The notes beneath the pieces are model-generated. The model ran no database searches and was not told the DNA's origin. It worked only from the letters and a program-made list of their open reading frames with translations. Shown here piece after piece: positions 1-26,748 of a DNA stretch of 64,000 nucleotides. Position 1 is the stretch's first letter, and each line of letters opens with the position of its first letter. This DNA comes from Stegostoma tigrinum (lineage: Eukaryota), in the NCBI RefSeq assembly GCF_030684315.1, contig NC_081384.1:31458935-31522934 (forward strand). The letters are read 5' to 3'. Made by a program: the position numbers and the translations under genes.

Positions 1-94
1 CGTAGTCGCACTCCTCACTCTGATTATTGTTTTAAAAATTAAAGGTATCATTCTTCAACCAGTTTCTGCTTTTCCTATTTGTACACGGTGGCTG

Positions 95-428
95 GTATTC
101 TTACAACCATTATTCAAAATTCACATCAACTCTCCCATTCCATTTATCTCTCCGTGCAAACGGCTTTCCCCTTCACTGCTCGGCAACCAGTCTCATCTGG
201 ACATCGCGCAGTTTTTCCGCCGTCTCCGCTTCCCCACCGATAACTCTCCTCTCCACCTATCTTCTCCTCTTTCCATCTTCTCTCCGCCTCCCCTCTCTCC
301 CTATTAACTTCAGATTCCTCTCCCATCCCCCTTTTCTGATGAAGGGTCTAGGCCCGAAACGTCAGCTTTTGTGCTCCTAAGATGCTGCTTGTCCTACTGT
401 GTTCATCCAGCTCCACACTTTGTTATCA
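95..428 (+). mobile_element. Penelope-like element 3' fragment with hammerhead core (duplicate at about 8470-8800)
   Basis: C/T-rich tract similar to 46700-46980; CTGATGA-AGGG-TCTAGG-CCC-GAAA-CGTC at 336-363 (duplicate at 8707-8734). Confidence 0.7.
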
Positions 429-697
429 CAAACTTTGTCCATTTTTGCTGCTGAACCGGAATACAAAATTCAAAGAAACAATCGTATCACAGAAAAAATC
501 AGAGCAGTGGAATTGAAAAAGGGTTGATACGTCTCAGGTGTAAGTGCAAATCTTGAACGAACATTGGAGATGACGAGCACGAAGAGTAACAGACTGAAGA
601 CAGAAATATCAGTAGCAATTATACTCAGTGTCAAAAGGTTAAATGAGAGAAGTCAAAAATGGACATCAAACTAGTAAATGTGTAATGTTAAACCGAA

Positions 698-870
698 TTT
701 ATTTATATCAATGAGTTCGTTTTCAGTATAAAAATTTCCAGCTTAAAAAAAATTTACTTCCCAACGTACAAATAAATAACAATAAATTAGCATCTTTAAG
801 TTAATTGACATATTACATAAATTTCAATAAATTAAGACGTCTCGTCAATAAATATGAATAAATTAGAGTA
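698..870 (-). promoter_or_regulatory. Gene 1 3'UTR AU-rich elements and poly(A) signal
   Basis: Several ATTTA/TTATTTATT on the minus strand; AATAAA at 703-698. The equivalent block occurs at about 9070-9240 (gene 2) and 17770-17938 (gene 3). Confidence 0.6.
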
Positions 871-1182
871 ACTGAGATGGGTTTCAAGATTGGCAAGTCG
901 GAGTTCACAAGTGACAAGGTCAATGTGGTTCAGAAATCACTGAACTGGAAGTCTGATGTTCCAAAACAGACTTCACACTCAGTGAAACTTCAACATTGCA
1001 TCGGGAGAAAACATCGCAACAATACATGTCAGTGAATCAAAATAAATAGTTCTGGCAACACTCCCGTTGTTGCTCTTGATGCAAGTGAGAAAAAAAATTC
1101 TTACAAACATATATAAACAGTTTCAATGGAAAGTCTTTGAAATAAATATTCATTGTTCTGGTCTGCAGTGAGAATGTTTTTT

Positions 1183-3479
1183 TCAGTTTCTTCTGTTGAC
1201 TTGTGCCATTATGAAATGCAACTGTTGTAAACGGGCTCTGGTCTCAGCACGGATTATTTCCCAGGAACATTCACTGAATTTCTGAAAAGTAAGATATTCA
1301 AGTAAGTGCATTTGAAAATGAAAAAATTAAATGTTGCCATGATTTACACAGTTAGTTATCAATTCTCATACCTTGTGTTTGAGAAACTTTTCCAGGTTCC
1401 TGAAGTAATGCTGAATGGCAGCATTTCTCTTCAGTTTGTGGTCAGATCCTGATTTCCTCAGGCAGTCTTGCAACTCTCTGAGCTGTTGATCGAGGAGAAG
1501 ACGAAAATGTTCAACCTTGTCCCAGGCCCAAGTGACTGAACCCAGGTTCATGCTGTAGATCTTGTTGATGTGGTGCAGGGTTTGATGGATAATCGCAGTC
1601 CTTTCCTGAGTCTGAACAAAACACACAAGGTTAGAAGAGACGACATTATTTCCGTTCGTGGTAATAAAACGTGCGGCTGGATGAACACAGCAGGCCGAGC
1701 AGCATCTCAGGAGCACAAAAGCCGACGTTTCGGGCCTAGACCCTTCATCAGAGAGGGGTTGGGGTGTGGGTTCTGGAATAAATTTGAGATGCAGCAGGGC
1801 CTGCTGTGTTCATCCAGCCTCACATTTTATTATCTTGGATTCTGCAGCATCCGCAGTTCCCATTATCACTAATACAATTATTTCCGTTCGTTTTGGGTTA
1901 ATATTCAATTCAATAAACAAACAGCAAATAACAGTTAATTGTTCAAATCCAATATTATCACATCAATGGAAAATGAGCAATGCGAGTCTTTAAATCAATG
2001 ATTAAGATGCAGGTATAAAGGGTTTATTCAGCAGAGGAAAAGGGCATGACAAGTTAGAGTTTTCAGCAGCCTCGAATTGTGCTGATAAAAGTGGAATGGA
2101 AAAGGTTCCAAACGATGAATATCCAGTTCCTCAGACAACAAGAAACAGGCTCAATCAAGTCGGAGAACTAACAAGCTAAATAGGGGTAATTGGAATGTGT
2201 GCCGATTAATTAGTGTGTAACACAAGAAGGAAGCTAAACATGTTTTTGAGAAGTGTTAATAAAAGAAAAGCTGGCTGGTAAGGGAGCAAAATATATGATC
2301 CCTCCTCTGTTAGCAAGGGTATCACTGAAGACTGAAACATTAATTTGAATTTACTTGCTTTAGAGAACAACAGTGTGAAACGTGAGTAAAGTGGCAAGTT
2401 GATGATAAACTCAGCAGGAAGTAACTCGACAAGGAGAAAGTCATCAAGAGTTAACAGCGAATAGAATGTGAATGCTACTTGCCCTTTTTTGAATATATTC
2501 TGAGTTTGCTTTTGCAAAGTAGAAATTCGTGTAAAATCATGCTCAAAGGAGCGAGAAAATAATAAACATATCCTGTGTGGTGAAGAATGTTGATGGTTCG
2601 GAACTTGGATGTAACGTGGAAAGTGCAGCGATAGCGAGAAAGATCCTGTGAAGCCTGAGAACAGGGGCCCTTTCGCTTTCAGCCCGAACTTTCGAGAGCA
2701 GGATGGGGATTTGTTCAGTGAGAGGGTTGAGTTTTAAGCAGGCAAAGTGATTCTCAGTGACAGCCCTGTTCAACGTCAGTTGCGGCAGCCGAATGGTAAA
2801 CGACGAATTCACAAAACAGTGGAGAGTGCTGCAGTGATTTTTGTCAATTCACTTCAGCTGAAATGGGACTAAAATGGACAGATGTTGACAACTCAAATAC
2901 CAAACGAAGGTACCTTGAGAGCAGTACTGACAAAGCATGAACTTGTTCACAGTGTGCCAGTCTCATGCTTTTACTGAGACGGGTTGCGGCGATTTACACA
3001 ACGGATGGAAATCATTGCGGTTCAACCTCCAACGATCTGATCGTGTCGCTAATCTCACACATACATTCTCTAAAGTCTCAGTCTGAATAAAATGACTCAC
3101 CTCAAATCCGTCGGAAAGTTTCACCAGATCCAAGGGCTTAGTTTTCAGTGACAGCCTCTGCCTTATGCAATGTCGGGGGAAATGACCTCCCTGAGAAGAG
3201 GAAACAGTCCCGGTTACATTCAGTCCCACAAACTGAAATGCTGGAGAAACACCGAACGGTAATTGCACAAAATGAATATCTATTTCTCCCTCAACCGACA
3301 TTCAACAGCGAACAGACCAACTGGGACTCCGATCAGTTGACACTCACCATTTCGTACAGTTTGCTCAAGGTCTCTGTGTTGAGAACTTGCTGTAACTGCA
3401 GCCTCTCACAGCCCAGGCTCAGGCTCCCTGACCCCAAGAGCAGCACCACCCAGAGTCTCCAAATTCTCGCCAGAGCCAT
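1183..3479 (-). CDS. IFN1: Type I interferon, gene 1 (4 exons, 186 aa)
   Basis: Exons 3479-3348, 3190-3101, 1611-1372, 1281-1183 (132/90/240/99 nt), all GT-AG and phase 0. Signal peptide MALARIWRLWVVLLLGSGSLSLG, then CERLQLQQ; one Cys per exon; C-terminal KFSECSWEIIRAE matches the type I IFN CAWE motif. Confidence 0.93.
1660..1876 (-). mobile_element. Penelope-derived fold-back insertion in intron 2 of IFN gene 1
   Basis: 15-bp TSD ATTATTTCCGTTCGT (1645-1659, 1877-1891); empty site in copy B at about 10016-10030; internal inverted repeat; hammerhead core at 1751-1724. Confidence 0.85.
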
Positions 3480-3576
3480 GCTGCACCGAGATAGCGGCGA
3501 AACTCTGACCAGAAGAATCCGATCACGACTGGATCTGCTTCCAACTCCCAAAACAGTCCCTTTTTCACTGATAATG

Positions 3577-3697
3577 GGAACTGCAGATGCTGGAGAATCC
3601 AAGACATTAAAATGTGAGGCTGGATGAACACAGCAGGCCCAGCAGCATCTCAGGAGCACAAAAGCTGACGTTTCGGACCTAGACCCTTCATCAGAGC
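3577..3697 (-). mobile_element. Penelope-derived 121-bp element between the TATA box and ATG of IFN gene 1
   Basis: Absent from copy B (GATAATG/AGAAGCGG joined at about 11717); same family as 8014-8150 and 46889-46979. Confidence 0.85.
3664..3697 (-). ncRNA. Minimal hammerhead ribozyme motif (Penelope type)
   Basis: Minus strand GCU-CUGAUGA-AGGG-UCUAGG-UCC-GAAA-CGUC-AGC: conserved core boxes, stem II GGG/UCC, 3-bp stem I GCU/AGC, palindromic ACGU in place of stem III. Activity untested. Confidence 0.6.
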
Positions 3698-3809
3698 AGA
3701 AGCGGTTTCCTTCAGTGTCGAGTCCTGTGCGACTGTCTGAGTATATCTGCATGTCTGACAGAGCGAAGTCGGCCTGAGCTGGGTGCTGTGACCGCCTGAG
3801 CGGCCGGTG

Positions 3810-3968
3810 TATATAGGAGGCACTGGCGAGGTGTGGCCATGACATTCGAAAAGTGAAACCAGCTTCCGGGAGTTTTCAATGATCAGAGGAGAGCAAGTGT
3901 GTGTGCTCCCTGTCTGACGGAAGGAATCTGAAAGCTGAAGATTCCTGAAGGAGCGAGTGGAAGATCCC
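3810..3968 (-). promoter_or_regulatory. IFN gene 1 promoter: TATA, IRF/ISRE and NF-kB-like sites
   Basis: TATATA 3810-3815; GAAAAGTGAAACC 3848-3860; GGGAGTTTTC 3868-3877; GGGATCTTCC (minus) 3959-3968. The IRF and distal kB-like motifs recur in genes 2 and 3. Confidence 0.7.
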
Positions 3969-5478
3969 TGACAGAAAATAACAACGAGTGTTCGAGACAA
4001 GCTCAAAGATCCGACAATTCCTTCCAAAATCATTTAAAGCATTATTGGAAAACCGAATACTTTCTCTCAATTAAAACGGATATACGGGCATTATTGGAGC
4101 AATGGGTTAGATTGCTGAATTATATTTCTTCAATCAACACGACAAACAACATTCAGACGATGCGTAAATTTGAAAAAAGAACTCATCTCTCGCCTCCTCT
4201 GCAACCTTTCAAAGACTGAACCACAGCTTCGTCGTTCAAGGTCTCTCTGCTCGACGGACCGATCTGGCTGGGACTGCATTCCGTTGCTCCCATTCTGATC
4301 AAACTCATTGTAGCCTGAGAATGATCACATCTCTTCACACTCCAAACTGCTCACACACTCTCACTGTCAGCTGACTCCAACGGAAGCTGCCCTTAGTCCC
4401 TGATAACAAAGTGTGGAGCTGGATGAACTCAGCAGGCCAATACAGAAGGTTCATCCAGCTCTACACTGTTCAATCTCGGATTCTCAAGCATCTGCAGTTT
4501 CTTTTGTCTCTGCCCCAAGTCCCCCTGTACTAATCTCCGTGCTCATCCCTACTGGACAAAATACAAATTGTAGCCTTAGATTCCAAGCGTTGCGAGGACC
4601 GAAAGCTCTGTCCCTCGGGACATCTCCCTGAAGACTCCAATTGTACTGCATTTTCACTCGGTATATTCATCAGCCACAATCATTTCCGTTAACTGCGCAT
4701 CGAGAGACTGGAGTAAATGTTTTTGTTTTACGAAGCAAAAACTGTCTTCCTTGTCACTCACTCCAGCCAAACCAAATTTCACCCCTCTCAATGACAAACT
4801 TCTGAACCTGACCCAGGCAATGCGCCCCGTGTTTTATATTTGACCCCGAGGTGAACTTATGATGCTTACCTGAATCATCATCGTCCTCCTGTTTGGAGTA
4901 AGCTATATCTCAGACTTAAGCATTGCCCCCTGTTTCAGATTCCGCGAAAACATGCAACTCTACCTTCCCTTCTGCCCTGTATAGGCCAAGGTCACGGCTC
5001 TGTGGCTGCGACGCCATTCGGCCATACTCCCAAACACCTTTGCCCTGCCCTGACATGGACTAGAACACAGCTACCTCCACACCTCATTCCCGTTTTGAAT
5101 GTACACCTCTGTCCCCAGACATAGTGGAACACCTCACTCGTTTCCGTCAAGTTCCCTTCCTCCTCTGTTCAACTCCCGCTGATATGTGCCGAGCCGGGAC
5201 CAACAATTCCACGTCAATCAATTTCAGGCATTATTCTGGTGACACCTCCTGGCCATGCTCCCAATGCAGCACACGGGAAATGCACTGCGCCTCTCCTTCA
5301 ACAAGATGACCAGCTGTACACACCACACGAGATGTGCTCTGATCGATTCCAGTACAATCGAAAAAACCGCACAACTTCAGTATTGTTATATGTTTTGTCT
5401 TTGCGTGTCAACAGTTTCCGACTCTCGTACTCTAACATACAAACGTTCGGATCTGTATTTGGGGCAGCTGACACTCAC

Positions 5479-5610
5479 CATTTCGTGCAGTTTGCTCAGA
5501 GTCTCTGTGTTGAGAACTTGCTGTAACTGCAGCCTCTCACAGCCCAGACTCAGGCTCCCGGACACCAAACCCAGCACCATCCAAAATCTCCAAACCGTCG
5601 CCAGACACAT
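5479..5610 (-). other. Orphan but intact IFN exon 1 (possible alternative first exon for gene 1)
   Basis: 132 nt, MCLATVWRFWMVLGLVSGSLSLGCERLQLQQVLNTETLSKLHEM, donor GTGAGT; no exon 2 seen before gene 1. Confidence 0.85.
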
Positions 5611-5774
5611 GTTGTACCGAGACAGAAGGTAGCACCGAGGTGGAAGATGAGAAAGCGGTCAGTGTGCAGTCGGAGCGGATTGTGACCCGGGAGCGGCCGC
5701 CTGTGCTGCCGAGTGCTGTGAGTGTGAGCCTGGGCTCTGCTGGTTGCTCTCACCGGCACTGCCATGCTGGCGGC

Positions 5775-6460
5775 TTTAAAGGGGCACATTACATTCCAAA
5801 AGTGAAAACTGCTCCCAGGATTTTTGGAGGACCTGGAGCAGGAGCGTGTGCTCTTTCTATCTGAGGTAAGGAATCGAAAAACTGGAGATTCCCGAAGCTG
5901 CGGCTGGAAAATCCCGGGTCGAAAATCGCAACCAGCGCTCGATTTGCAGCTAAATGTTGAGTGTGTTCAGATGATCGGGCACTGAGCTGGTGCAGGAGGA
6001 GGATCTGTACTTGGCTGGTGGGATTGGGGACTGGGTCGGGATATGTACTTGGGGCTGGATGTCCTAATCCGGATTACAGAGACCCCGTACGCGGAAATCC
6101 CCGGTGTCACGGCGCTAGTCGCGTTCCCATTTTCCAGGTTGGAGATGACAGGGAGCCCGGGTCACAGGCCTGGCTCACCGGCTGCTGGCGACTGTCTCCG
6201 CTCACATTCACCTGGCCCAGAATCCGCTCCCTCACTGGAGCAAGGTTCCCACTTCCAGCTCGGATTCCGGAAATATTTTCAGGATCTCTATCGAATCACC
6301 AGGATCTGATCCGACTCTGAAAGTGATCCCTCTCCCTTTCCTTTCATCGCTTCTTTCTGCTCTCTCTCTTCCGGGAAAGTGTCCGTGTCGGTTTCTCTCT
6401 GCAAATGTACCTCGTGTCTGTTTTCTCAAAAGCGAAAGTGCCGCAGGGAAAGTGACGCGT
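5775..6460 (-). promoter_or_regulatory. CpG-rich promoter/enhancer of the orphan exon 1, with multiple NF-kB and IRF motifs
   Basis: TTTAAA 5775-5780; AAAAGTGAAAAC 5798-5809; minus-strand GGGAATCTCC 5884-5893, GGGATTTTCC 5906-5915, GGGGATTTCC 6093-6102; AAAAGCGAAAGT 6428-6439. Confidence 0.65.
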
Positions 6461-8013
6461 TTTGTCATTTCCGAAAGGGAGTGGAGTTTGTCAACACAGC
6501 GGGTCAGACTGAGAGGGGGCAGGACAAGGAACATGTGGGAAAGTATTTGTGATATTCCGGAACATGTTGGTTCAGGGGCAAATGTCTCCAAATCACTTTT
6601 ACTTGGAACTACCACCCACTCTGACAGAGCAGGTGAACTATTTAAATGCTTGAAATGTTCACTTTTATAATTAAGTCTTGCTGTTTGTAGCTGGAACAGA
6701 AACTGTTTTTACCCGAAATAGAATTTGGCCGTTGATTTTAAACTGTTGCCAACGAGAATTCGCACAAGATTGGTCCTCTTTAAATTACAATGATACTTAG
6801 CGCTCAACATTTGCCAATCACAAAATTTCTTTGCAACCGCGTTCCTACACGCATGGAACTGTCCTCATAGCCAAACACTCCAGGGTCGTCGTTGGCACAT
6901 TCGCCAAGTCCTGCAAGCTTCAACAAAGCGAATGTCTGCATCCTGAGCAGGACCAGTGTGACATGCGAGACAAAGTCTGCTTCAAAAGGCTACATTTATA
7001 TAACGCCGTTCATGACCAAAACACTCATCAAATCACCCTGCAAAAATAGACTCTTTTTAAAATGTATTCACTTTAAATGCAACAAATATGTTCTGCGTAT
7101 TGTGTTGCACAACCTCAGAGCATGTGGAATACAGTAAAACGCAGATTACCTGGTTTTGTGATATTGATTGTGGTTCAGTTAGAGGAATGCCAGACGGATC
7201 ATTGGTGGGGCATAAAGTACTCAGTATTTCTGTTAGTAACTTGTTTGAAGGGGCGCACGACAAGCAAGAAATGCTAGCGCAGTCAGCGACAACGCCTTCC
7301 CAGGACTGAATGACAAAAATCAGAAAACCATCCAGAATGTGGAACGTCAATGGAAAGAGGAAGCTGATGAAAGGTGGGGATGTTTTGTTGTCAATACGCA
7401 GGATATTCGTGCAAACAAATTCCGTGTACTAGTTATATAATGTTTGGGCTCACTACTTAAACAAGATACACAATTATCAGACAAACTTCAGAGTAAATCC
7501 ACTCGGTTAATTCTTGGAATATTAATGTTGGCTAATAAGAACAGATTTCGCGTCTGGGCCCACGTAAATTGCAGTTGTGCAGAATGAAATGGTGAAGTTA
7601 TTGAAACAACTAAGGATCTGGGGAGACTTAAGTGAATAAATGTTATGTAGGTATTTCGGCCTTTGTGAATGCGACTAAATGCTCATTGGTTGAATATGAG
7701 CAAACTCCACTTCAGATAGAGGTAAGGACAATTTCCTGGTCGAGGAGTCGATTGTCACTCCGTACGTCCACCCCTGACACCCACCGTGATATTCTTTAAA
7801 ATATTCAGGTCTATAGTGAGATTTTTGATCGACAATCAAACCATAACTTTTTGTAGGGACTACAAACCTGAAAAGAACAGGAGGTGCTGATAATCTGAAA
7901 CATAAAACAGGAATTGTTGCAGAAAATCAGTCGTCTGACAGCAACTGTAGCAAGAAAGGAGAACTAACGTTATTATTCCAGTGACCTTCAGGAGCGAACG
8001 GGAAAAGAAATCA

Positions 8014-8150
8014 GAGATAATGGGAACTGCAGATGCTGGAGATTCCAAGATAATAAGATAATAAAATGTGAGGCTGGATGAACACAGCAGGCCAAGCAGC
8101 ATCTCAGGAGCACAAAAGCTGACGTTTCGGGCCTAGACCCTTCATCAGAG
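8014..8150 (-). mobile_element. Penelope-derived short element with hammerhead core
   Basis: Core at 8148-8121; flanking AGAAATCA direct repeat (8006-8013, 8151-8158). Confidence 0.8.
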
Positions 8151-9553
8151 AGAAATCACTCTGCTTTCTCTCTATAGGGTTTCTGCAGAAATGTTTGCTT
8201 CTGTCAAAGGTCTTTAGGGTATGAGCTGAAAATATGAGCGAAGGCCACAATCTGATCAGCTGCAACACAACATTCGAAACACTTGACGTGTTAAGTGTTC
8301 ACCCTTTTACATGGTTATGCGATCAAATATTTCTTTAAAAAATGTATTTTTCGCAGCTGGAAGCTGTTATGATTCGTAGTCGCACTCCTCACTCTGATTA
8401 TTGTTTTAAAAATTAAAGGTATCATTCTTCAACCAGTTTCTGCTTTTCCTATTTGTACACGGTGGCTGGTATTCTTACAACCATTATTCAAAATTCACAT
8501 CAACTCTCCCATTCCATTTATCTCTCCGTGCAAACGGCTTTCCCCTTCACTGCTCGGCAACCAGTCTCATCTGGACATCGCGCAGTTTTTCCGCCGTCTC
8601 CGCTTCCCCACCGATAACTCTCCTCTCCACATATCTTCTCTTTCCATCTTCTCTCCTCCTCCCCTCTCTCCCTATTAACTTCAGATTCCTCTCCCATCCC
8701 CCTTTTCTGATGAAGGGTCTAGGCCCGAAACGTCAGCTTTTGTGCTCCTAAGATGCTGCTTGTCCTACTGTGTTCATCCAGCTCCACACTTTGTTATCAC
8801 AAACTTTGTCCATTTTTGCTGCTGAACCGGAATACAAAATTCAAAGAAACAATCGTATCACAGAAAAAATCAGAGCAGTGGAATTGAAAAAGGGTTGATA
8901 CGTCTCAGGTGTAAGTGCAAATCTTGAACAAACATTGGAGATGACGAGCACGAAGAGTAACAGACTGAAGACAGAAATATCAGTAGCATTTATACTCAGT
9001 GTCAAAAGGTTAAATGAGAGAAGTCAAAAATGGACATCAAACTAGTAAATGTGTAATGTTAAACCGAATTTATTTATATCAATGAGTTCGTTTTCAGTAT
9101 AAAAATTTCCAGCTTAAAAAAAATTTACTTCCCAACGTACAAATAAATAACAATAAATTAGCATCTTTAAGTTAATTGACATATTACATAAATTTCAATA
9201 AATTAAGACGTCTCGTCAATAAATATGAATAAATTAGAGTAACTGAGATGGGTTTCAAGATTGGCAAGTCGGAGTTCACAAGTGACAAGGTCAATGTGGT
9301 TCAGAAATCACTGAACTGGAAGTCTGATGTTCCAAAACAGACTTCACACTCAGTGAAACTTCAACATTGCATCGGGAGAAAACATCGCAACAATACATGT
9401 CAGTGAATCAAAATAAATAGTTCTGGCAACACTCCCGTTGTTGCTCTTGATGCAAGTGAGAAAAAAAATTCTAACAAACATATATAAACAGTTTCAATGG
9501 AAAGTCTTTGAAATAAGTATTCATTGTTCTGGTCTGCAGTGAGTATGTTTTTT

Positions 9554-11620
9554 TCAGTTTCTTCTGTTGACTTGTGCCATTATGAAATGCAACTGTTGTA
9601 AACGGGCTCTGGTCTCAGCACGGATTATTTCCCAGGAACATTCACTGAATTTCTGAAAAGTAAGATATTCAAGTAAGTGCATTTGAAAATGAAAAAATTA
9701 AATGTTGCCATGATTTACACAGTTAGTTATCAATTCTCATACTTTGTGTTTGAGAAACTTTTCCAGGTTCCTGAAGTAATGCTGAATGGCAGCATTTCTC
9801 TTCAGTTTGTGGTCAGATCCTGATTTCCTCAGGCAGTCTTGCAACTCTCTGAGCTGTTGATCGAGGAGAAGACGAAAATGTTCAACCTTGTCCCAGGCCC
9901 AAGTGACTGAACCCAGGTTCATGCTGTAGATCTTGTTGATGTGGTGCAGGGTTTGATGGATAATCGCAGTCCTTTCCTGAGTCTGAACAAAACACACAAG
10001 GTTAGAAGAGACGACATTATTTCCGTTCGTTTTGGGTTTATATTCAATTCAATAAACAAACAGCAAATAACAGTTAATTGTTCAAATCAAATATTATCAC
10101 ATCAATGGAAAATGAGCAATGCGAGTCTTTAAATCAATGATTAAGATGCAGGTATAAAGGATTTATTCAGCAGAGGAAAAGGACATGACAAGTTAGAGTT
10201 TTCAGCAGCCTCGAATTGTGCTGATAAAAGTGGAATGGAAAAGGTTCCAAACGATGAACATCCAGTTCCTCAGACAACAAGAAACAGGCTCAATCAAGTC
10301 GGAGAACTAACAAGCTAAATAGGGGTAATCGGAATGTGTGCCGATTAATTAGTGTGTAACACAAGAAGGAAGCTAAACATGTTTTTGAGAAGTATTAATA
10401 AAAGAAAAGCTGGCTGGTAAGGGAGCAAAATATATGATCCCTTCTCTGTTAGCAAGGGTATCACTGAAGACTGAAACATTAATTTGAATTTACTTGATTT
10501 AAAGAACAAAAGTGTGAAACGTGAGAGTGAAGTGGCAAGTTGATGATAAACTCAGCAGGAAGTAACTCGACAAGGAGAAAGTCATCAAGAGTTAACAGCG
10601 AATAGAATGTGAATGCTACTTGCCCTTTTTTGAATATATTCTGAGTTTGCTTTTGCAAAGTAGAAATTCGTGTAAAATCATGCTCAAAGGAGCGAGAAAA
10701 TAATAAACATATCCTGTGTGGTGAAGAATGTTGATGGTTCGGAACTTGGATATAACGTGGAAAGTTCAGCGATAGCGAGAAAGATCCTGTGAAGCCTGAG
10801 AACAGGGGCCCTTTCGCTTTCAGCCCGAACTTTAGAGAGCAGGATGGGGATTTGTTCAGTGAGAGGGTTGAGTTTTAAGCAGGCAAAGTGATTCTCAGTG
10901 ACAGCCCTGTTCATCGTCAGTTGCGGCAGCCGAATGGTAAACGACGAATTCACAAAACAGTGGAGAGTGCTGCAGTGATTTTTGTCAATTCACTTCAGCT
11001 GAAATGGGACTAAAATGGACAGATGTTGACAACGCTAAAACCAAACGAAGGTACCTTGAGAGCAGTACTGACAAAGCATGAACTTGTTCACAGTGTGCCA
11101 GTCTCATGCTTTTACTGAGACGGGTTGCGGCGATTTACACAATGGATGAAAATCATGGCGGTTCAACCTCTAACGATCTGATCGTGTCGCTAATCTCACA
11201 CATACATTCTCTAAAGTCTCAGTCTGAATAAAATGACTCACCTCAAATCCGTCGGAAAGTTTCACCAGATCCAAGGGCTTAGTTTTCAGTGACAACCTCT
11301 GCCTTATGCAATGTCGGGGGAAATGACCTCCCTGAGAGGAGAAAACAGTCCCGGTTACATTCAGTCCCACAAACTGAGATGCTGGAGAAACACCGAACGG
11401 TAGTTGCACAAAATTAATATCTATTTCTCCCTCAACCGACATTGAACAGCGAACAGACCCACTGGGACCCCGATCAGTTGACACTCACCATTTCATACAG
11501 TTTGCTCAAGGTCTCTGTGTTGAGAACTTGCTGTAACTGCAGCCTCTCACAGCCCAGGCTCAGGCTCCCTGACCCCAAGAGCAGCACCACCCAGAGTCTC
11601 CAAATTCTCGCCAGAGCCAT
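9554..11620 (-). CDS. IFN1: Type I interferon, gene 2 (4 exons, 186 aa; protein identical to gene 1 by my reading)
   Basis: Exons 11620-11489, 11331-11242, 9982-9743, 9652-9554; GT-AG, phase 0, open frame, CSWEIIRAE motif. Confidence 0.92.
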
Positions 11621-11829
11621 GCTGCACCGAGATAGCGGCGAAACTCTGACCAGAAGAATCCGATCACGACTGGATCTGCTTCCAACTCCCAAAACAGTCC
11701 CTTTTTCACTGATAATGAGAAGCGGTTTCCGTCAGTGTCGAGTCCTGTGCGACTGTCTGAGTATATCTGCATGTGTGACAGAGCGAGGTCGGCCTGAGCT
11801 GGGTGCTGTGACTGCCTGAGTGGCCGGTG

Positions 11830-11988
11830 TATATCGGAGGCACTGGCGAGGTGTGGCCATGACATTCGAAAAGTGAAACCAGTTTCCGGGAGTTTTCAAT
11901 GATCAGAGGAGAGCAAGTGTGTGTGCTCTCTGTCTGACGGAAGGAATCTGAAAGCTGGAGATTCCTGAAGGAGCGAGTGGAAGATCCC
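11830..11988 (-). promoter_or_regulatory. IFN gene 2 promoter (IRF and kB-like sites; TATA changed to GATATA)
   Basis: GAAAAGTGAAACC 11868-11880; GGGAGTTTTC 11888-11897; GGAAGATCCC 11979-11988. Confidence 0.65.
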
Positions 11989-12734
11989 TGACAGAAAATA
12001 ACAAAACGAGTGTTCGAGACAAGCTCAAAGATCCGACAATTCCTTCCAAAATCATTTAAAGCATTATTGGAAAACCGAATACTTTCTCTCAATTAAAACG
12101 GATATACGGGCATTATTGGAGCAATGGGTTAGATTGCTGAATTATATTTCTTCAATCAAAACGACAAACGAGACTCGGACTATGTGTACATCTTAAAAAT
12201 AACTCATCTCTCGCCTCCTCTGCAACCTTTCAAAGACTGAACCACAGCTTTGTCGTTCAAGGTCTCTCTGCTCGACGGACCGATCTGGCTGGGACTGCAT
12301 TCCGTTGCTCCCATTCTGATCAAACTCATTGTAGCCAGAGAATGATCACATCTCTTCACACTCCAACCTGCTCACACACTCTCACTGTCAGCTGACCCTA
12401 ACGACCTCCTCTTGTTCCCTTTCTGCATCGCTCCGTGATGGCCTCTATTGGACAAAATACAAACAGCAGCCTTAGATTCCAAGCCTTGTCAGGACTCAAT
12501 GCTCTCCCTCTGTACATCTCCGCAACTTTCCAACCGCACTGCATTTTCACCCTCCATATTTATCATCCATAGCCGCCAGCATGGCAGTGCCGATGAGAGC
12601 GACCAGCAGAGCCCAGGCTCACACTCACAGCACTCGGCAGCACAGGCGGTCGCTCCGGCTCACAATCCGCTCCGACTTCACACTGACCGCTTTCTCATCT
12701 TCCGCCTCGGTGCTCCCTTCTGGCTCGGTGCAAC

Positions 12735-12866
12735 ATGGCTCTGGCGACGGTTTGGAGATTTTGGATGGTGCTGGGGTTGGTGTCCGGGAGCCTGAGTCTG
12801 GGCTGTGAGAGGCTGCAGTTACAGCAAGTTCTCAACACAGAGACTCTGAGCAAACTGCACGAAATA
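12735..12866 (+). other. Orphan intact IFN exon 1 with truncated promoter (possible alternative first exon for gene 3)
   Basis: 132 nt, MALATVWRFWMVLGLVSGSLSLGCERLQLQQVLNTETLSKLHEI, donor GTGAGT at 12867. Upstream homology to the 5610 module stops near 12572, just short of the TTTAAA and IRF elements. Confidence 0.85.
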
Positions 12867-14172: not shown

Positions 14173-14300
14173 GGGATCTTCCACTCCCTGCTTCAGAAAT
14201 CTCCAGAATTCAGATTCCTTTCCTCAGACAGCGAGAACCCAGAGGTTTTCTTGCTCTCTTATACCACGTTCAAAACTTCCACAAACAGGTTTCACTTTTC
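14173..14300 (+). promoter_or_regulatory. IFN gene 3 promoter
   Basis: GGGATCTTCC 14173-14182; GGTTTCACTTTTC 14288-14300. Confidence 0.6.
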
Positions 14301-14572
14301 GAATGTCATGCCGACACTTCGCCAGTCCCCCCACCGATAGAAACCGGTGCTCAGGCAGTAGCAGATCCGAGCTCAGGCCAACCTCGCTCGATCACACACA
14401 CAGACACTCGCTCAGGACTCGACACTTAAGGAAATCGCTTTGACTTGACAAGCAGCTGCATTGCGACGCCCCCAGTTTAAATCAATAACAAAGGAGCCGT
14501 TTGGGAGTTGGAACCAGACCCAGTCGTGATCAGATTCTTCCGGTCAGAGTTTCCCCGCTATCTCGGTGCAGC

Positions 14573-17443
14573 ATGGCTCTGGCAAGAATTTGGAGACTCT
14601 GGGTGATGCTGGTCTTAGTGTCCGGGAGCCTGAGCCTGGGCTGTGAGAGGCTGCAAGTTACAGCAAGTTCTCAACACAGAGACTCTGAGCAAACTGAATG
14701 AAATGGTGAGTTTCAGCTGACCCCACAACAGAATCTGAATCTCACCGGGATTTTACTTTGCTAATTGTCAGATCAGGGAGAAATAGAATTCCTTTGTGTG
14801 CAATTCGCTCTCTGTGATACTCCAGTAACTCATTTTGTGGGACTGAAAGTAACTGGGACTGTTTTCTCATCTCAGGGCGGACCCTTTCCCCTACACTGCC
14901 TAAGCCAGAGGTTCTCGTTGAAAACGAAGTCGTTGAACCTTGCGAAACTTTCCAGCGGACTGGAGGTGAGTGAAAACTCGATTGGTTTTATTCAGATGGA
15001 GACGATAGAGAATGTACGTGTGAGATTAATGGCATGATCAGAGCGTTCGACATTGAACATCAGTGATTACCACCCATTGTATAAATCGCCAAAGCGTATC
15101 GGCGTCGTTTTGTTTCTCTCTTTTCCTCGTTCACTAATTCCCTTCCTGTTCTTTAAATCTCCTTATGACAAACCCTCCCCCTGAGACGATGTCAAAACCT
15201 CTCCCGACCCCATCCCTCAGACCCACCTACCCACCTCATCCAAAAGCCTTTCCTGTCTATCACGCCGCTCGAACTATCTTGTTTCACTCAATCTCAATGC
15301 CGCTCACTGACCTCATCTCTTTTCTCATAGTTTCTCACGTTCGCATTGCTCAGGCTTCCTGAAACCTTCTCAAATTATCACAATCTAACTCTCCCTTAAA
15401 ATCTCACTTACTCCGTTTCGCCAATCCCTCCAATCCTGATGGGCTCATTCCTGTCTGGCTTCCATTGGCAGTGAGATGTGAACCACAGAGGCCAGTTAAT
15501 TTCTGCAAACACAGCACCGCGCTGCATCCAAAGAGTCAATCTCTCTCCTGAATGCACAAACTGAATCAATTCACCAATTAATCCCACGCACCTGCCCCAT
15601 AACATAACACACCTTCCGCTTTAACTCTATATCAACATCACTTTTAAAAATTATTCTCGGAGCTTCTTTTCACCACGCGGCCAGTACATTCAAATACACA
15701 CAGTTGGCTGATTAATATTCCTACAACAACCCTTCAGCTAGGTGCTAATGTGATGCTATTTTGCATAGATCGCATTTATGCACTTTGTGGCTATTTACTG
15801 AGACGCATTTTATTCTCCTTGCCTACTTCATGGGATTCTCTTATTTATCCTTTATAAGCGGGAGATCATTGCTGTCTGGCTCAGCAAATCTCTGAACTAT
15901 GAAAGATGAGACGACTGCAGCCCTTCCACAGTAATCATTCCATGCTATGTGTTTACTCCACTCGAGAATCTTTGTCTGGTTTTAGCATTGTTAGTATCTG
16001 TCCCTGCTATTTCAATGTTGTGCCCCATTTCCCTGAAGTGCATTTTCAGTATTCACTGAATTACTTTTGGCTTGCCGCAAGGAACATTCACTCGGACTGT
16101 CACTGAGAGTCAATTTGCTTGTTGAAAGTGCAACGCTCTCGCTGAACAGATGGCCCACTTTCTATTAGAAAGGGTAACAATCTGTGACTAAGTAAGTAAG
16201 TTAAGGAAGTACCGAACTGAAGGGAAGGGAATGTAATGTTGAAAAGATTAGTGACTGAACAGAAGATGAGAGAAGTTTTAAAAAATAGATAATTATGCCT
16301 AAAAATAATAGAGCAAAAAATAGGCTATGAGAATAAACTAGCAAAAATAAAGCTTCTCCATTCGTAATATAGGAAAGAAGACAACTGAAATATATGTTGA
16401 TACATTATAGCCTGAAATTGGCGAATATTTAATTGGAAGCAAAGAAATGACAGAGACTTTGAACAAATATTTTGTATTTGTTATCTGTTTATTCTCTCTT
16501 CAATTTCTCATCAACCTCTACTTTCCTGTAACATTTAATACCTTTGTTTTCTAAATAAAATAAATTCAACTCACATTCATTCTTCAGTCTTGACCTCAAC
16601 CTCAAAGTGGAAATTACATAATTTACAACCTTATCAACATGTTTTCGTTGAATTAAAACTTTTTAAAAATATGTTAATCTTCCTTTTCGTGTTACACACT
16701 AATCAATCTTTTATTTTTTAGTTCGTTCTCCCTCTTGATTGAGCCTGTGTCCTTACGATAGGAAGTACTGAATATTAGTAATGCAGAAGCTTTTCTGTTT
16801 CACTATAACATAGACAATTCGGAGTTACAAAGAACTCCAACTGGTCACGTCATTTTCTATGCATCAAAGCCCCTCTGTACATATTTTCAAAATATTGATT
16901 TAAAGAATTGAATTACTCAAATTCTATTCATTCTCATGAAAGCCTATAATGAATGGGAATAAATTTCTCTTTCCAAATCTTGTGTGCCTTGTTCAGGCTC
17001 AGGAGAGAATTCAAATAATCCATCAAACCCTGCACCTCATCAACAAGATCTACAGAATTAACCTGGGTTCAGTGACATGGGCTTGGGACAAGGTGGAAAA
17101 CTATCTTCTTCTCCTGGATCTACAGCTCAGAGAATTGGAAGACTGCCTGAGGAAATCAGGGTGTGACCACAAGATGAAGAGAAATGCTGCCATTCAACTG
17201 TATTTCAGGAAATTGGAGAAGTTCCTAAAACACGAGGTATAACAATTGATAACGAACTGTGTGCTTCCTAACAAACAATTGTTTTGCCAACATTTAACTC
17301 GTTTCATTCTCAAATGCATTTGCTTGAATATTCTACCTTTTCAGAAATTCAGTGACTGTTCCTGGGAAATAATCCATGCTGAGAGCAGAGCCCGTTTACA
17401 ACAGCTGCATTCCATTATGGCACAAGTCAGCACAAGAAACTGA
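14573..17443 (+). pseudogene. IFN1: Type I interferon, gene 3; +1 frameshift in exon 1, exons 2-4 intact
   Basis: Exons 14573-14705 (133 nt; CTGCAAGTTA versus CTGCAGTTA in paralogs, extra A at 14655/14656, giving TGA at 14699-14701), 14876-14965, 16997-17236, 17345-17443 (KFSDCSWEIIHAESRARLQQLHSIMAQVSTRN*). The extra base could be a sequencing error. Confidence 0.85.
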
Positions 17444-19970: not shown

Positions 19971-20794
19971 TAACCTCTTGATTACTCTTTGGATGCTCTG
20001 CAGGTCCTCCTCACAAATTGTTTTGTCACTTTATTTGATGACATTAGCATTTCTGTCATAATTTTTGTCTGACGCCCATTCAAAATAATAAAACCAGGTT
20101 ATCTGGTCTTTACTGTATTCCGCCTCGTGGGAGCTTGCTAAACTCAATTTGTTGAACATATGTCCTGCGTTTGAACTGAAAACTTGTCAAGTATTTTTTA
20201 AAGTTTTTGAACAGTGCCTTGGAAAGTTATTTGTTCATGACGGGTTATATAAATGTAGCTCCTCCCGTACTGCGTGATCTGGCCTCACATGCAAGCTGAT
20301 TGAATTCAGCATGCATGCACCGCCTTTGCAAATGTTTGCTGGTCATCGAAAATGCGCCAAATTTAACTGGAGAGTTTAGGTGTGTAACAGCAGTATCCAT
20401 GCATGAATGCATTTGCAGTGTATTTTGTAACAGTAAAATTATTCCCGCTAAGCACCAAATATAACTTCAAATGGACCCATATTGACTGAAGTGCCGTAGT
20501 CAACGACTTAAAACCAACAATTAATTCGTCTTTTTTGAGGACAAGACAGTTTCTGTACCAACTAGAAACAAAATCGTTTTAATGAGAAAATGAGCGTTTG
20601 AATGCATTTAAAATAAAATGTCCATTCTGTAAGTGTGTATGGTGGTTTCAAGTAAAAGTGATTTGGAGACATTTGCCCCTGAACCAACATGTTCCGGAAT
20701 ATCACAAACACTTTCCCACATGTTCCTTGTCCTGCCCCCTATCAGTCTGACCCGCTGTGTTTACAAACTCCTCTCTCTTTCGGAAATGACAAAA

Positions 20795-21500
20795 CGCGTC
20801 ACTTTCCCTGCGGCACTTTCGCTTTTGAGAAAATAGACACGAGGTACATTTGCAGAGAGAAACCGACAAAGACACTTTCCCGGGAGAGAGAGAGCAGAAA
20901 GAAGCGATGAAAGGAAAGGGAGAGGGATCACTTTCGGAATCCGAATCACCAGATCCTGGTGATTTCACACGGATCCTGAAAATGCCTCCCGAATCCGAGC
21001 TGGAAGTGGGAACCTTGCTCCAGTGAGGGAGCGGATTCTGGGCCAGGTGAATGTGAGCGGAGACAGTCGCCAGCAGCCGGTGAGCCAGGCCTGTGACCCG
21101 GGCTCCCTGTCATCTCCAACCTGGAAAATGGGAACGCGACTAGCGCCGTGTGAACGCACCGGGACACCGGGGATTTCCGCATACGGGGTCTCTATAATCC
21201 GGATTAGGACATCCAGCCCCAAGTACATATCCCCATACCCACCAAATCCCACCAGCCAAGTACAGAGCCTCCCCCTGCACCAGCTCAGTGCCCGATCATC
21301 TGAACACACTCAACATTCAGCTGCAAATCGAGCGCTGGTTGCGATTTTCGACCCGGGATTTTCCAGCCGCTGCTTCGGGAATCTCCAGCTTTTCGATTCT
21401 TTACCTCAGAAAGAAAGAGCACACATTCCTGCTCCAGGCGCTCCAAAAATCCTGGGAGCAGTTTTCACTTTTGGAATGTAATGTGCCCCTTTCGAGCCGC
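20795..21500 (+). promoter_or_regulatory. IFN gene 4 promoter/enhancer (inverted paralog of 5775-6460)
   Basis: GGGGATTTCC about 21170, GGGATTTTCC 21355-21364, GGGAATCTCC 21377-21386, GTTTTCACTTTT 21461-21472; TTTAAA replaced by TTTCGA. Confidence 0.62.
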
Positions 21501-21642
21501 CAGGAGCAACCAGCAGAGCCCAGGCTCACACTCACAGCACTCGGCAGCACAGGCGGTCGCTCCCGGGTCACAATCCGCTCCGACTGCACACTGACCGCTT
21601 TCTCATCTTCCACCTCGGTGCTACCTTCTGTCTCGGTGCAGC

Positions 21643-24600
21643 ATGTGTCTGGCGACGGTTTGGAGATTTTGGACGGTGCTGGGGTTGGTGTCCGGGAGCC
21701 TGAGTCTGGGCTGTGAGAGGCTGCAGCAAGTTCTCAACACAGAGACTCTGAGCAAACTGCACGAAATGGTGAGTGTCAGCTGCCCCCAGAACAGGATTGG
21801 GATCTCACTCTGTCCGTTATACTTTAGGAAGTGCTATGTGGGAGGTGGATATGATGGATTAAAGTCACTGTTAACAAAATTGCTGGAATTATTTGTGAGG
21901 GATGACAGGCAGGGTGATCATCGTACTTTGTTGGTACGTTTGATTGCGACAAGGAATTTTGGACAAAATGTAGAACTTCAAATGAGAAAACTTTTGTGTA
22001 GAACGGCTCAGCATGTGGCGGACTGAAATTACTTAGTTGAAATGAGAAGCGATTTATTTTTGATAGCAAGCACCGCCGAACAAAATGATTAAATTGTCAA
22101 GGGGCGCAGTGGCAGAGGGCCTTTTGCATATATCCGCTTAAATCCATGACAAATTGACAGAGAGGACAACGTGATAGAACTTCAAAACTTATCTACCTCC
22201 CGAGACTTTATCCATACGGCTAGAGAATATTATCTGTAAAGAAATTATATTAAACTTGAATAACAGTATAGGTTTGGCCTCAGTGGAATATCATGTGGTT
22301 GTTGGGCACTACACTTTAGCAACAAACTAAAGCAGTTCTGATGGATTCAGAAGGATAGGTGCAGGGATGAGCAACTTCAATACTGCATTTACATTGGAGA
22401 ATTGGGGAGTGGCTTCCTTGCAGAAAAGCATGTTGAGTGGATAATTTACTGAGGTATTTAAAGTGATGAGGTGGCAGTAATGGCAGAAGATCCAATGGTG
22501 ACATGAGGAATGGCCTCTTCATGTAATGAGTGGTTGGGAGCCGCCACATGCTGCCTGAGATTGTGGTGGAGAGCAATCAAAGGAGAAGGTGGAATATTTT
22601 CTTGAAAAGATGAAGGTAGAAGACCAAGTGTGTTAAATTCAGCAAACCAATCCAACTTCGGACAACCAACATAAAGGCGAAAGGCTGATTGGCTTCCTTT
22701 TGTGCAGTCACCATGTTGTGAAACTGCGTTGTTTGACCCTGAATGGAACTAGGAAATCAGCCTCTGAGGAACTGAGCAAATCACATACAGAGGAGATTAT
22801 AGGTCAGCATGTCTTCCAGGTGGTACATGTTAAAAATGGAGGTTGTATTGGTGAACAGAATCAACTATCAATGTCTGAAGGGGAAACTAAACAAAAGGAT
22901 CAGAACTAGAAATTAAGGGGAAATCAAATTTGAAGGGCACAATTGATTATCAGACCATTATTAATGATTTGAATCAGGAAAGTCAAATTTATACAGAGCC
23001 AAGTTTACAGATGCCACAAAAATAGGTCGGTGGCAAATGTTGAGAAATATGCCATGAGTATGCAGAAAGATTTAGACAAGATAAGTGAATAGGCAAAGAC
23101 TTAGCATGCAGGATGCAATATTGGAACATCTGATGTTATGCACATTGATAGGAAGAATAGAGCAGGAAGAATGGACAAGCATGGAAGAAAGTGAAAAATA
23201 AAAGAGATTTAGGAATCCTTCTGCATGAATCACAAAATTCAAGTTTAGCAAGTATTAGGGAAAACAAATGGAATGACGGCCTTAATTCAAAGGCTTCAGA
23301 GTATAAAAATAGCCGAGTCTTATTAAAAACAAACAAGATACTAGTTAGACCACACCTGGAATATTGTGACCAGTTTTGGTCCCCTTATCTCAGGAAAGAT
23401 TTATTGTCATTGAAGGCTGTGCAGAGAACCGTCACTAGGTTGAGCCAGAATAGGTAGGATTTGTTGTATGAAGAATGGTTGAATAGATTGGGCCTGGACT
23501 CTTTGGAGCTTAGAAGAATGAAAGGCCACCTTATTGAACAATGCTACATTCTTAGGAAACTTCACAGGATTGATGCAGAGATGTTGTTTTCTTTCGAGGG
23601 AAAGACTCGTATCACAGGCACAGTTTCAGAGTGTGCAGTCAGCCAGAGATGAGAAATTTCTGTTGTCAGAGATAGTGAATCTGTGATTTTTTTCATCACA
23701 GAGGCCTATCAAGTCTGGGTTGTTAAGTATATTCAACATTGAGATATTCAGCTTTTTAACCAGTAAAGCAATCAAGGGTTGTGTGGAAAGGGCAGGATGG
23801 TAGAGTTGATGGTTAACAGCTCAGTAACGGTGAAGCAGGGCTGATGGACTGTATATAAGATAACACGGTGTGAAGCTGGATGAACACAACAGGCCAAGCA
23901 GCATCAGAGGAGCAGGAAATCTGATGTTTCGGGTCGAGACCCTTCTTCAGCATCAACAGTTCCTACTATCTCTGTATCAATGACTGAATATCCTACTCCT
24001 GCTCCTACATCTTATGGTCTTTTGGAAGGGAATTGATCTTGAGGGAGGTTGGAAGCAAAAATGGTAAACTGAGGGCAAATGGGAGTATAAATGGAGAGGA
24101 GTATTTCAACAGTAGTTACTGATGTAGGTTAGAGTCAGGGAACATTATGGAAGTGGAAGTAGGCAGTCTTATTCATACTCACCTCTGGGTCAAACATGAA
24201 AGCAGGTTGGCAAAAGGTCTGGGTCAGACTCAGACAGTTTCCAGGGAGAGGGATGGCATCCATGACTCGGGAAGAGATATTCTGCTGGGGACCATAACAG
24301 TAGTTTCAGTGGTCTCAACATTGGAAATAGGAAAATGAGTAGGCTATTAGTCTCATTAAACCTGCTCCACTGTTTAATAAGATTATGACTGCCCTGACTA
24401 TGATTGTAACTTTACATTCTTGCCTTTCCCGGCACCCTCATTAGAAAAGCCCCCTCGTCTTCAGCTTAAGTAGGGGGTACCTGATTCTGAAACTGTCAAA
24501 TATGTTACAGATTCCCCCATAAAGGGGTACATCTCAGCATCTACTCAGTCAAATCCCCCCCCAAGAATCCATATTTTACAATAAGGTGACCTCTCATTAT

Positions 24601-26748
24601 TCTATATGCTAATGGATACTTACCTGAGGCCTTCAACCTTCCTTCATAAGACAAGCCTTCAGATTTTTAATTGAAAGAAACTTCTTCTCCATGAAAAGAG
24701 AAGTTTGGATCAGCAGTCTGATAGTTCAGAGGCTGGAGGAGTGGAGAAAGCTGATGGTGAGGTAGAATTTTGTTCTGAATGCAGATAAGTACTAACTGAA
24801 GTCAGATGATGCCACCACTCGGCAGTGTGTAGCTGCGAAATGCACCAGGGTGGTAGTGCCTCTGCCTTTGAGCATGGAGAACTAGTTTCAATTCATGCCT
24901 GCTCCAAATGTGTGTAACAACATCCATGGATAGGTTGATTATGAAGAGTGTAGATCCTGAGGAGATACCAGGAGGAACACGGTGAGATCAGGAAAAGAAG
25001 TCGCTGCGGGTGATTTGCTTGCTACAATTACATGGATCAGAGTAGAACGAGGCAATTACAATCGCAGCCAGCTGCTGGTGAAGGCTGGCCGACGATATGA
25101 TGTGATCAAACGTGTTAAAGGCTGCAGACAGTGTCGGACAGATAGTGGGGAAAGATTGCCATTGTGACAGTAACATTGATTTAATCAGTTACAGAGAAAA
25201 ATACATTCTCGTCAATACAGCAGCCATTATTGTATCCTGTTGCGGAGAATCCCATGCTCAAAAAATCCTTTTAACTTGTCCAGGTTACCAGATGTTTGAG
25301 CTAACCCCCATTATCTGGCTTTGATTTTCTATCAGGCATTTTCTTCTCACTGCTTTCGCAATCACCAGATTTCAGATTTCTTCCCTCAGACAGGGAGCAG
25401 ACAGACTATTTCTCATTCTCCCACACTCGTCCAAAACTCCTGTAACCACATTTCGTTTTTCGATTGACATTTCCACACCTCACCCATTGCTCGTCCTATA
25501 AAAATGTGGCAGCTTGGGCAGTGCCAGCTCCCAGAAGAGGCCAGATACACACGCGCGCCCCCCCCCCCCACAAAGACACACACACACACACACACACACA
25601 CCTGTTCAGTTTTAGCTGCCTCCAAAACTCGATCAGAAACTCAGCGGGTTTGCTCATTGTTAGATAGTTTGCAGTTTTGCTCCATTGTACTGTTGATAGT
25701 AAGTTGTTCTCCAGTATTTCTGTTGCTGATGTTGGTTGAATCAATGAACGTCTTCTCACAGGGGGGTCGCTTTCCCTGGCAATGTGTAAGTGAAAGATCT
25801 GCACTTAAAGCCAAGCCCCTGAACTTGGTGAAGCTTTCAAAAGGTTTACAGGTGAGTGGACACTGGACTGGAGTTTATTTTTAAATCTTCTGACAGGAGT
25901 TTTCTGGAAAGCATTTAAGATCAACAACTTTAGAATTTAAATATCAGGCCACCCACCGATTCAGAAAAGTGTCATGTGCTGTTTTCAGTCAGGTTTACTG
26001 AAATAAAGAGACCATTCAGTGAATTGTAACTATGTCAGGTTAATATACTCACCACACAGTCGAATCCAATTTCCAACTCCAGTTTTACAGAGTACAGAGC
26101 TAAGTGCAGATCCAGGTTCATTTTAAATGAGTTGAGGCTTTCTCAAGCACCAAGAAGTGCAGAGAATTCCAGGCACTCATCACACTCCATGTGACACCAT
26201 TCTTCCTCATATCCTCCCTAGTTCCTTCTAGCAGTTGGAATTAGATGAAATGGGAAACAGTTCTTTCTCTAAGATTCCTGTGTGTGTTTTTCTGAGGCCC
26301 AGGACAGGATCCAGATACTTCATCAAACCTTGTATCATATCAAGAAGATCTGCAGCATGAACGTGGGGTCGGTCACTTGGGCCCAGGACAAAATGGAAAA
26401 TGTCTGGCTTCTCCTTGATCGACAGTTCAGGGAAGTAGATGAATGTGTTAAGAGATCTGGAGCAGAGGTCAGACTGAGCAGAAACACCACCATTCACAAA
26501 TACTTCAGGAAACTGCGAAAGTTTCTCAAACAGAAGGTGGGACAATTGATCATTGACTGTACAATTACTGGCATTCAGTTCATTTCATTCCATTTAAAAT
26601 GTGTTCATTCTCTAATATCTCTTATCCCCTCAATGATTCCATATTTCAGAACTTCAACGACTGTTCCTGGGAAATAATCCGCGCTGAGACCAGAGCCTGT
26701 TTACAACAGTTGTTTGTCATTATGGCAGAAGTCGGCAGAAGAAATTAA
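21643..26748 (+). CDS. IFN1: Type I interferon, gene 4 (4 exons, about 184 aa)
   Basis: Exons 21643-21768, 25762-25851, 26297-26536, 26650-26748 (NFNDCSWEIIRAETRACLQQ...). The exon 3 acceptor is GAG, with an in-frame CAG 6 nt downstream. Intron 1 is 4 kb, so the exon1-exon2 join is inferred. Confidence 0.82.
22950..23850 (+). mobile_element. CR1-like LINE 3' end in intron 1 of gene 4
   Basis: [34 protein letters not shown] and YEEWLNRLGLDSLELRRMKGHLIE are typical CR1 ORF2 C-terminal motifs; a second decayed piece lies at about 22060-22600. Confidence 0.85.
25557..25601. repeat. Poly-C and (CA)n microsatellite
   Basis: Seen directly. Confidence 0.9.

Follow-up and report, generated by a model that had tools for sequence, protein, structure and literature searches.

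Tandem promoter and first-exon units at a zebra shark type I interferon gene suggest a two-promoter design

We analysed a stretch of 64,000 nucleotides (nt) from the zebra shark, Stegostoma tigrinum (RefSeq assembly GCF_030684315.1, contig NC_081384.1, positions 31,458,935 to 31,522,934 of the forward strand; hereafter the window), which holds a cluster of four-exon type I interferon (IFN) genes. Upstream of the promoter and first exon that adjoin the body of gene 1 (the proximal unit) lies a second predicted promoter with an intact first exon of its own (the distal unit), and we put at roughly 60% the probability that gene 1 is a two-promoter gene in which the distal exon works and the proximal unit serves as a second start. 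The distal unit is likely to be a working start, and probably the main inducible start of gene 1, because neighbouring copies have lost or broken their proximal unit. The analysis is based on the 64-kb window, public protein models and DNA contigs from four runs of one sample; gene copies beyond the window were visible through protein models and contig depth only.

Gene 1 has four exons and three phase-0 introns (Table 1). Exon 3 gave seven protein matches, all of them named shark interferons with PF00143, the best being a RefSeq Stegostoma tigrinum protein at 100%, and the products of gene 1 carry Pfam PF00143 in the precomputed annotation. The distal exon (5610-5479) ends in ATG followed by GTGAGTGT, and the identical donor stands at the proximal exon (3479-3348); the two exon 1 regions are 87% identical over 161 nt and their donors are in the same phase. 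Joining 5479 to 3190 and continuing through exons 3 and 4 yields a stop-free type I interferon of 186 residues, which differs from the proximal product at eight positions, namely leader residues 2, 5, 6, 9, 11, 14 and 16 and mature residue 42 (H/Y). A hydrophobic core is apparent at residues 9-17 of either leader, as read directly from the sequence. No remnants of exons 2-4 were found in any of the three spacers searched, and homology to intron 1 stops 17-40 nt beyond the donor. Neither AATAAA nor ATTAAA occurs in the would-be intron of 2288 nt (5478-3191), in which the exon 2 acceptor is tied for the most pyrimidine-rich. A complete upstream gene at the distal unit was rejected for want of exon 2-4 remnants; origin by an old deletion is possible.

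Most of what an earlier, sequence-only reading had said of the distal unit is borne out by these data, namely the intact open exon with its phase-0 GTGAGT donor, the putative signal peptide, the promoter rich in kB and IRF sites, the lack of exons 2-4 of its own and the predicted full-length splice product. Beyond that reading, we found the same distal-plus-proximal layout at genes 3 and 4.

The distal product of gene 1 is letter for letter the RefSeq protein XP_059494807.1 (P0013), as are those of genes 3 and 4 the proteins XP_059494617.1 (P0004) and XP_059494787.1 (P0050), respectively. The RefSeq models matching genes 3 and 4 thus use the distal exon, and if XP_059494807.1 describes the gene 1 locus then the annotation pipeline picked the distal exon there as well. 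The proximal product, which is the same protein from genes 1 and 2, corresponds to XP_048416306.2 and is found under that one accession only. The names of the Stegostoma models matching genes 1-4 bear no isoform label. The distal leader is present in seven of the nine retrieved Stegostoma models (five of seven among gene-1-type bodies) and belongs to the only exon 1 available to gene 4, which does not fit the earlier description of the unit as "spare". XP_059494806.1 and XP_059494818.1 (P0009 and P0012) are distal at the first seven diagnostic residues and proximal at the eighth, a pattern that would fit a crossover between two exon copies, thin as one residue is.

Outside the zebra shark, a Hemiscyllium model (P0019, XP_060704568.1) contains a translated distal-type promoter and 5′ untranslated region (UTR), followed by the beginning of an exon 1 read out of frame and by a whole second exon 1, hinting at the same tandem layout there. 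An exhaustive search with distal exon 1 returned one representative with a single stretch and no further model with two first exons, and with the translated distal UTR as query none of four candidates appeared at E<=10. A proximal-type leader is found in a whale shark model (P0008). In Rhincodon typus, a gene-4-type model (P0049) begins with a distal-like leader; three accessions go with it under 'isoform X1', which suggests that several transcripts have been modelled there. Contig depth, which was expressed relative to gene 3 introns and does not equal copy number, was 5.5-7.3x at the distal promoter, 5.0-6.4x at its upstream flank and 5.8-7.4x in the gene body, compared with 3.3-4.3x at the proximal promoter and 1.8-3.1x in the spacer, figures that would fit, as a rough indication, a distal unit without a proximal one in some copies beyond the window.

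Motifs were counted for five patterns in nine regions against 300 shuffles, with p values uncorrected for multiple tests. The 900 nt upstream of the distal exon contain three kB consensus sites (0.38 expected, p=0.023) and four AANNGAAA IRF-type sites (0.51 expected; four were reached in 0 of 300 shuffles), as against one kB and one IRF-type motif in the proximal promoter. The two units appear to be old duplicates, since identity amounts to about 73% between the core promoters (160 nt compared) and 87% between the exons. There are no upstream ATGs in the distal 5′UTR (5752-5611) versus four in the proximal 5′UTR of gene 1, so that a distal message would translate more cleanly. Three of the four are contributed by the insertion of a 121-nt repeat, and one overlaps the start of the proximal frame. 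The insertion also brings an ATG at 3752 into frame, creating a stop-free extension of the proximal exon 1 by 91 residues (3752-3480); the corresponding ATG is out of frame in gene 2.

Skipping of a hammerhead-bearing 5′UTR had been proposed as a consequence of distal splicing. A minimal hammerhead-like core does lie inside the 121-nt repeat at 3694-3667, with its conserved core nucleotides matching in a pattern search, but the argument drawn from it is weak: no Rfam hammerhead match was obtained in positions 1-20000 at E<=1, the predicted monomer fold of the repeat core is not a hammerhead, and minimal hammerhead motifs, in the portion of PMC4209133 available, gave no detectable cleavage in vitro as single copies and little as dimers. 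On these grounds ribozyme cleavage was rejected as the reason for the distal exon, and the upstream ATGs are the better reason why skipping the proximal 5′UTR could matter. Similar cores number 13 in the window, and contig depth is very high across the bin holding the repeat. A second sense-strand core is located at 1751 in intron 2 of gene 1, and a dimeric fold in the pre-mRNA is conceivable. The repeat resembles the minimal hammerheads of Penelope-like elements, as far as the same portion of PMC4209133 describes them, in its core (CTGATGA...CGAAAC GTC), palindromic helix III, bulged base 5′ of helix II and very high copy number; it differs in being a 121-nt fragment in a 5′UTR.

Each of the four genes presents a different state of the two-unit layout: both units are intact at gene 1, gene 2 has the proximal unit only, gene 3 combines a broken proximal unit with a promoterless distal one, and gene 4 has the distal exon only. 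Genes 2 and 3 meet head to head at about 12570 (12403-12571), where the distal unit of gene 2 and the distal promoter of gene 3 are both missing. The TATATA box is altered at the proximal units of genes 2 and 3.

Table 1. Coordinates of the first-exon units, gene bodies and associated elements in the window (position 1 is its first letter).
Feature	Position	Strand	Remarks
Gene 1 distal promoter and 5′UTR	5611..6600	-	92-97% identity to gene 4 20655-21642
Distal kB motifs	6102-6093, 5915-5906, 5893-5884	-	
Distal IRF-type motifs	6437-6430, 6344-6337, 5879-5872, 5807-5800	-	
Distal TATA-like box TTTAAA	5780-5775	-	
Gene 1 distal exon 1, coding part	5479..5610	-	leader and first ~21 mature residues; 132 nt, open, phase-0 GTGAGT donor
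Gene 1 spacer, 5′ part of would-be 2288-nt intron 5478-3191	4383..5478	-	66-71% identity to gene 3 spacer
Gene 1 proximal core promoter	3800..4010	-	kB 3968-3959, IRF-type 3858-3851, TATATA 3815-3810
121-nt high-copy repeat in proximal 5′UTR	3577..3697	-	empty site in gene 2
Gene 1 proximal exon 1, coding part	3348..3479	-	intact; product is P0011 / XP_048416306.2
Gene 1 exon 2	3101..3190	-	acceptor at 3190 common to both first exons; 13/15 pyrimidines
Gene 1 exon 3	1372..1611	-	
Gene 1 exon 4 (to stop)	1183..1281	-	
Gene 2	9554..12403	-	96-99% copy of gene 1; proximal unit only, frame intact
Gene 3 distal 5′UTR and exon 1	12571..12866	+	exon 12735-12866 intact; promoter missing upstream of 12571
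Gene 3 proximal exon 1	14573..14705	+	133 nt; one-base frameshift near 14655
Gene 4 distal promoter and exon 1	20654..21768	+	exon 21643-21768, in-frame 6-nt deletion; sole exon 1
Gene 4 proximal promoter remnant	25291..25542	+	TATAAA at 25497; no exon 1 behind
Gene 4 exons 2-4, open	25762-25851, 26297-26536, 26650-26748	+	

A comparison of genes 1 and 4 gives 92-98% identity for the distal unit along some 1.1 kb, from around 6600 to the donor, but only 65-78% for the flank upstream of about 6600, 69-71% for the proximal promoters and 72% for the region of exons 3 and 4; at the protein level, exons 2-4 are 61% identical. Likewise, genes 1 and 3 share 94.5% identity in the distal UTR and 97% in the distal exon, compared with 66-71% in the spacer. 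The contrast between tract and flank gave Fisher p values of about 1e-24 and 1e-49. Since the distal unit is so much more alike than its flanks, the simplest view is that the two-unit gene is old, was duplicated as a whole and had its distal unit converted later, and homogenisation of the distal unit by gene conversion across the cluster is the most likely explanation. The proposal that the promoter and exon 1 form a swappable regulatory module holds in so far as this cassette is common to divergent gene bodies; the swapping that can be seen is evolutionary, by conversion and deletion.

Trees were built from 27 selected rows, with P0006 (a different subgroup) left out of both the exon 1 and the exons 2-4 tree. 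Gene-1-type and gene-4-type bodies each form a clade (both 100/99 support), and because both clades hold Stegostoma, Rhincodon and Chiloscyllium rows, the split between body types and, we infer, the two-unit layout are older than these genera. Between body types, exon 1 is 89-100% identical in six of six species compared, versus 61-82% for exons 2-4; the proximal exon of Stegostoma, with 81%, is the exception to this homogenisation. Sequences of exon 1 cluster mostly according to species or genus and those of exons 2-4 according to paralog, which makes shark IFN gene models and exon-1-based trees unreliable. The exon 1 tree was itself poorly resolved (44 columns, one of 22 branches starred).

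Taken together, these data suggest the following course. The two-unit layout would go back to an old duplication that preceded the split between gene-1-type and gene-4-type bodies, and gene conversion would then have spread the distal unit and held it uniform across the cluster. Upon infection, NF-kB and IRF factors may fire the distal promoter near 5750, and the distal donor at 5478 would pair with the acceptor of exon 2 (3191/3190), skipping the proximal unit; this pairing is expected on two grounds, namely that the proximal exon 1 serves as a first exon and that any inclusion of it would lead to a premature stop. The proximal unit would be a weaker second start that survives in genes 1 and 2 and is presumably being lost elsewhere through frameshift, deletion or crossover between exon copies. 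Choice of unit would alter regulation, the 5′UTR and the leader, and hardly the mature cytokine, the predicted secreted form being nearly identical.

A number of points weigh against a working distal start at gene 1. The case for use of the distal exon at this gene is built on DNA and predicted protein models; RefSeq XP entries are predictions, and the assignment of XP_059494807.1 to the gene 1 locus is tentative. Either conversion or a point mutation could account for the single hybrid residue in P0009 and P0012, two whole genes may have been fused in the Hemiscyllium model, and contig depth is, by the tool's own warning, no copy number. The distal TATA-like box, only TTTAAA, is weaker than the proximal TATATA. 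At gene 3 the distal exon stands without a promoter, and the distal copy at gene 4 has lost the TTTAAA together with 17 nt near the presumed start, so that an intact core is lacking in two of the window's three distal copies. Six AG sites with at least 10 pyrimidines in 15 lie 157-597 nt upstream of the proximal donor, and seven of seven tested forms that include the proximal exon 1 internally stop at residue 67-132; distal transcripts could be lost to decay because such candidate acceptors could pull in the proximal exon 1 and lead to an early stop. Identity is as high in the UTR and promoter as in the exon, a pattern for which conversion suffices and selection need not be invoked. Comparison of the gene 1 and gene 3 distal exons gave two non-synonymous codon differences and one synonymous, and nothing in this points to purifying selection; conversion by itself could preserve an exon that is dead.

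These last points are shared with an explanation that we consider unlikely, in which the distal unit is the stump of a truncated duplicate, kept by conversion from copies that do use it, while gene 1 employs its proximal unit only and distal transcripts are absent or abortive. The conversion-like tract running over coding and non-coding sequence alike, with the Fisher values given above, the promoterless but open distal exon of gene 3, the candidate acceptors leading to premature stops and the general frequency of conversion here (exon 1 homogenised in all six species) would all be expected of such a relic. A relic would not account so readily for every element of the gene 1 distal unit being intact, for the missing poly(A) signal before an exon 2 whose acceptor ranks so high in pyrimidines, or for a layout that has survived duplications now about 30% diverged; moreover, a unit working over 4 kb at gene 4 should also work over 2.3 kb at gene 1.

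The opposite possibility, that replacement is complete and only the distal unit makes gene 1 protein, the proximal exon being intact but crippled by the 5′UTR repeat, strikes us as a little less probable still. The proximal exon is broken at gene 3 and gone at gene 4, TATATA is altered at genes 2 and 3, and at gene 1 itself the proximal promoter is poor in kB and IRF motifs and its 5′UTR burdened with the four upstream ATGs, including the in-frame extension and the one overlapping the start. Yet at gene 1 the proximal unit still has TATATA, its kB and IRF-type motifs, a strong donor and a frame that is open; gene 2, with its frame intact, possesses no other unit; and the proximal-type leader of whale shark P0008 indicates that this exon type has been kept since before the two genera split. 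We consider it very improbable that the arrangement is an artefact produced by the collapse of a tandem array during assembly. In favour of this view, genes 1 and 2 share 96-99% identity, contig depth suggests several near-identical copies, no contig spans the whole unit and the one-base frameshift of gene 3 could be an error. Mis-assembly cannot, however, generate a recurrence of these parts in the same order at genes 3 and 4, where identity is only 65-75%, and the spacer and both promoters are covered by DNA contigs that show 1-5 differences.

If the two-promoter reading of gene 1 is extended to the family, carpet-shark IFN genes may share an old arrangement of two promoters: a single promoter-plus-leader cassette, copied by conversion across divergent bodies, would time the whole cluster, and a second internal start would offer each gene an optional separate programme; gene 1 would then represent the intact two-start state and its neighbours promoter replacement in progress. 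We offer this wider picture tentatively and at less than even odds.

Several further features of the cluster were recorded. The promoter motifs of gene 2 lie 750-860 nt away from the distal ATG of gene 3. The proximal promoter remnant of gene 4 retains two IRF-type motifs besides TATAAA, and exon 2 of this gene can be read in frame from ATGs at 25729 and 25744, so that an unspliced start there would give a leaderless, N-terminally truncated interferon; this could be chance. Exon 3 of gene 4 (26297) has an unusual GAG acceptor, and the 3′ flank of this gene is not alignable with the 3′UTR of genes 1-3. Gene 5 (47800-44184, - strand), of a different subgroup, is probably a pseudogene: set against its close paralog, the intact gene 6 (54024-52605), it shows matches for exons 1, 3 and 4, the last with an earlier stop, but none for exon 2. 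At 51062-51133 (+ strand) there is a degenerate exon 1 fragment with a stop codon, for which no promoter homology was found.

The consequence for the protein is small, and duplicated first exons are already a known kind of arrangement; the two-unit layout bears rather on the open question of shared versus divided induction in multigene interferon clusters. Two-unit, proximal-only, distal-only and possibly hybrid copies stand side by side, making promoter turnover directly testable. A lineage leading to the intronless IFNs of tetrapods has been proposed among shark IFNs (PMC6640115), and the zebra shark genes may be near it. We found no report of two first exons in shark IFN genes in a literature search confined largely to the main texts of openly accessible papers; the words 'exon' and 'promoter' occur 0 times in the main text of Redmond et al. 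2019 (PMC6640115). Type I IFN genes of cartilaginous fish have four exons and three introns according to the part of PMC5332411 that was available, and gene 1 agrees with them in its four-exon, phase-0 structure and PF00143 homology; a second promoter and exon 1, both present at gene 1, are not mentioned in that part.

A teleost precedent had been invoked for the distal exon. It stands in so far as teleost group I IFN (IFNa/IFNphi1) also has two starts feeding one set of downstream exons (PMC5127012, PMC5332411, each available in part). It fails as regards the upstream form: according to the available text of PMC5127012 the long zebrafish transcript is constitutive, poorly inducible and without a signal peptide, its product not being secreted. 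Both shark first exons, in contrast, are homologous coding copies with leaders, and the upstream shark start has the richer set of inducible-type motifs. Identity with the teleost intracellular-IFN system was rejected, as the distal exon encodes a leader with a hydrophobic core. If both starts work, the shark gene would have a secreted-plus-secreted two-promoter design as against the secreted-plus-intracellular one of teleosts. By its sequence, gene 1 would work most like the variable-first-exon genes such as UGT1 and GCNT2, which, together with the protocadherin cluster, have tandem first exons with their own promoters and common downstream exons (PMC1885805, PMC3325998, in the parts available). 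In those clusters, as these parts describe them, the variable exon encodes a specificity domain and is set in long arrays, whereas each shark gene has just two first exons, whose coding parts specify a leader and a helix that is nearly the same in both, in an arrangement repeated gene by gene; the shark exons also appear to be homogenised rather than diversified, and the choice between them would alter regulation and not specificity.

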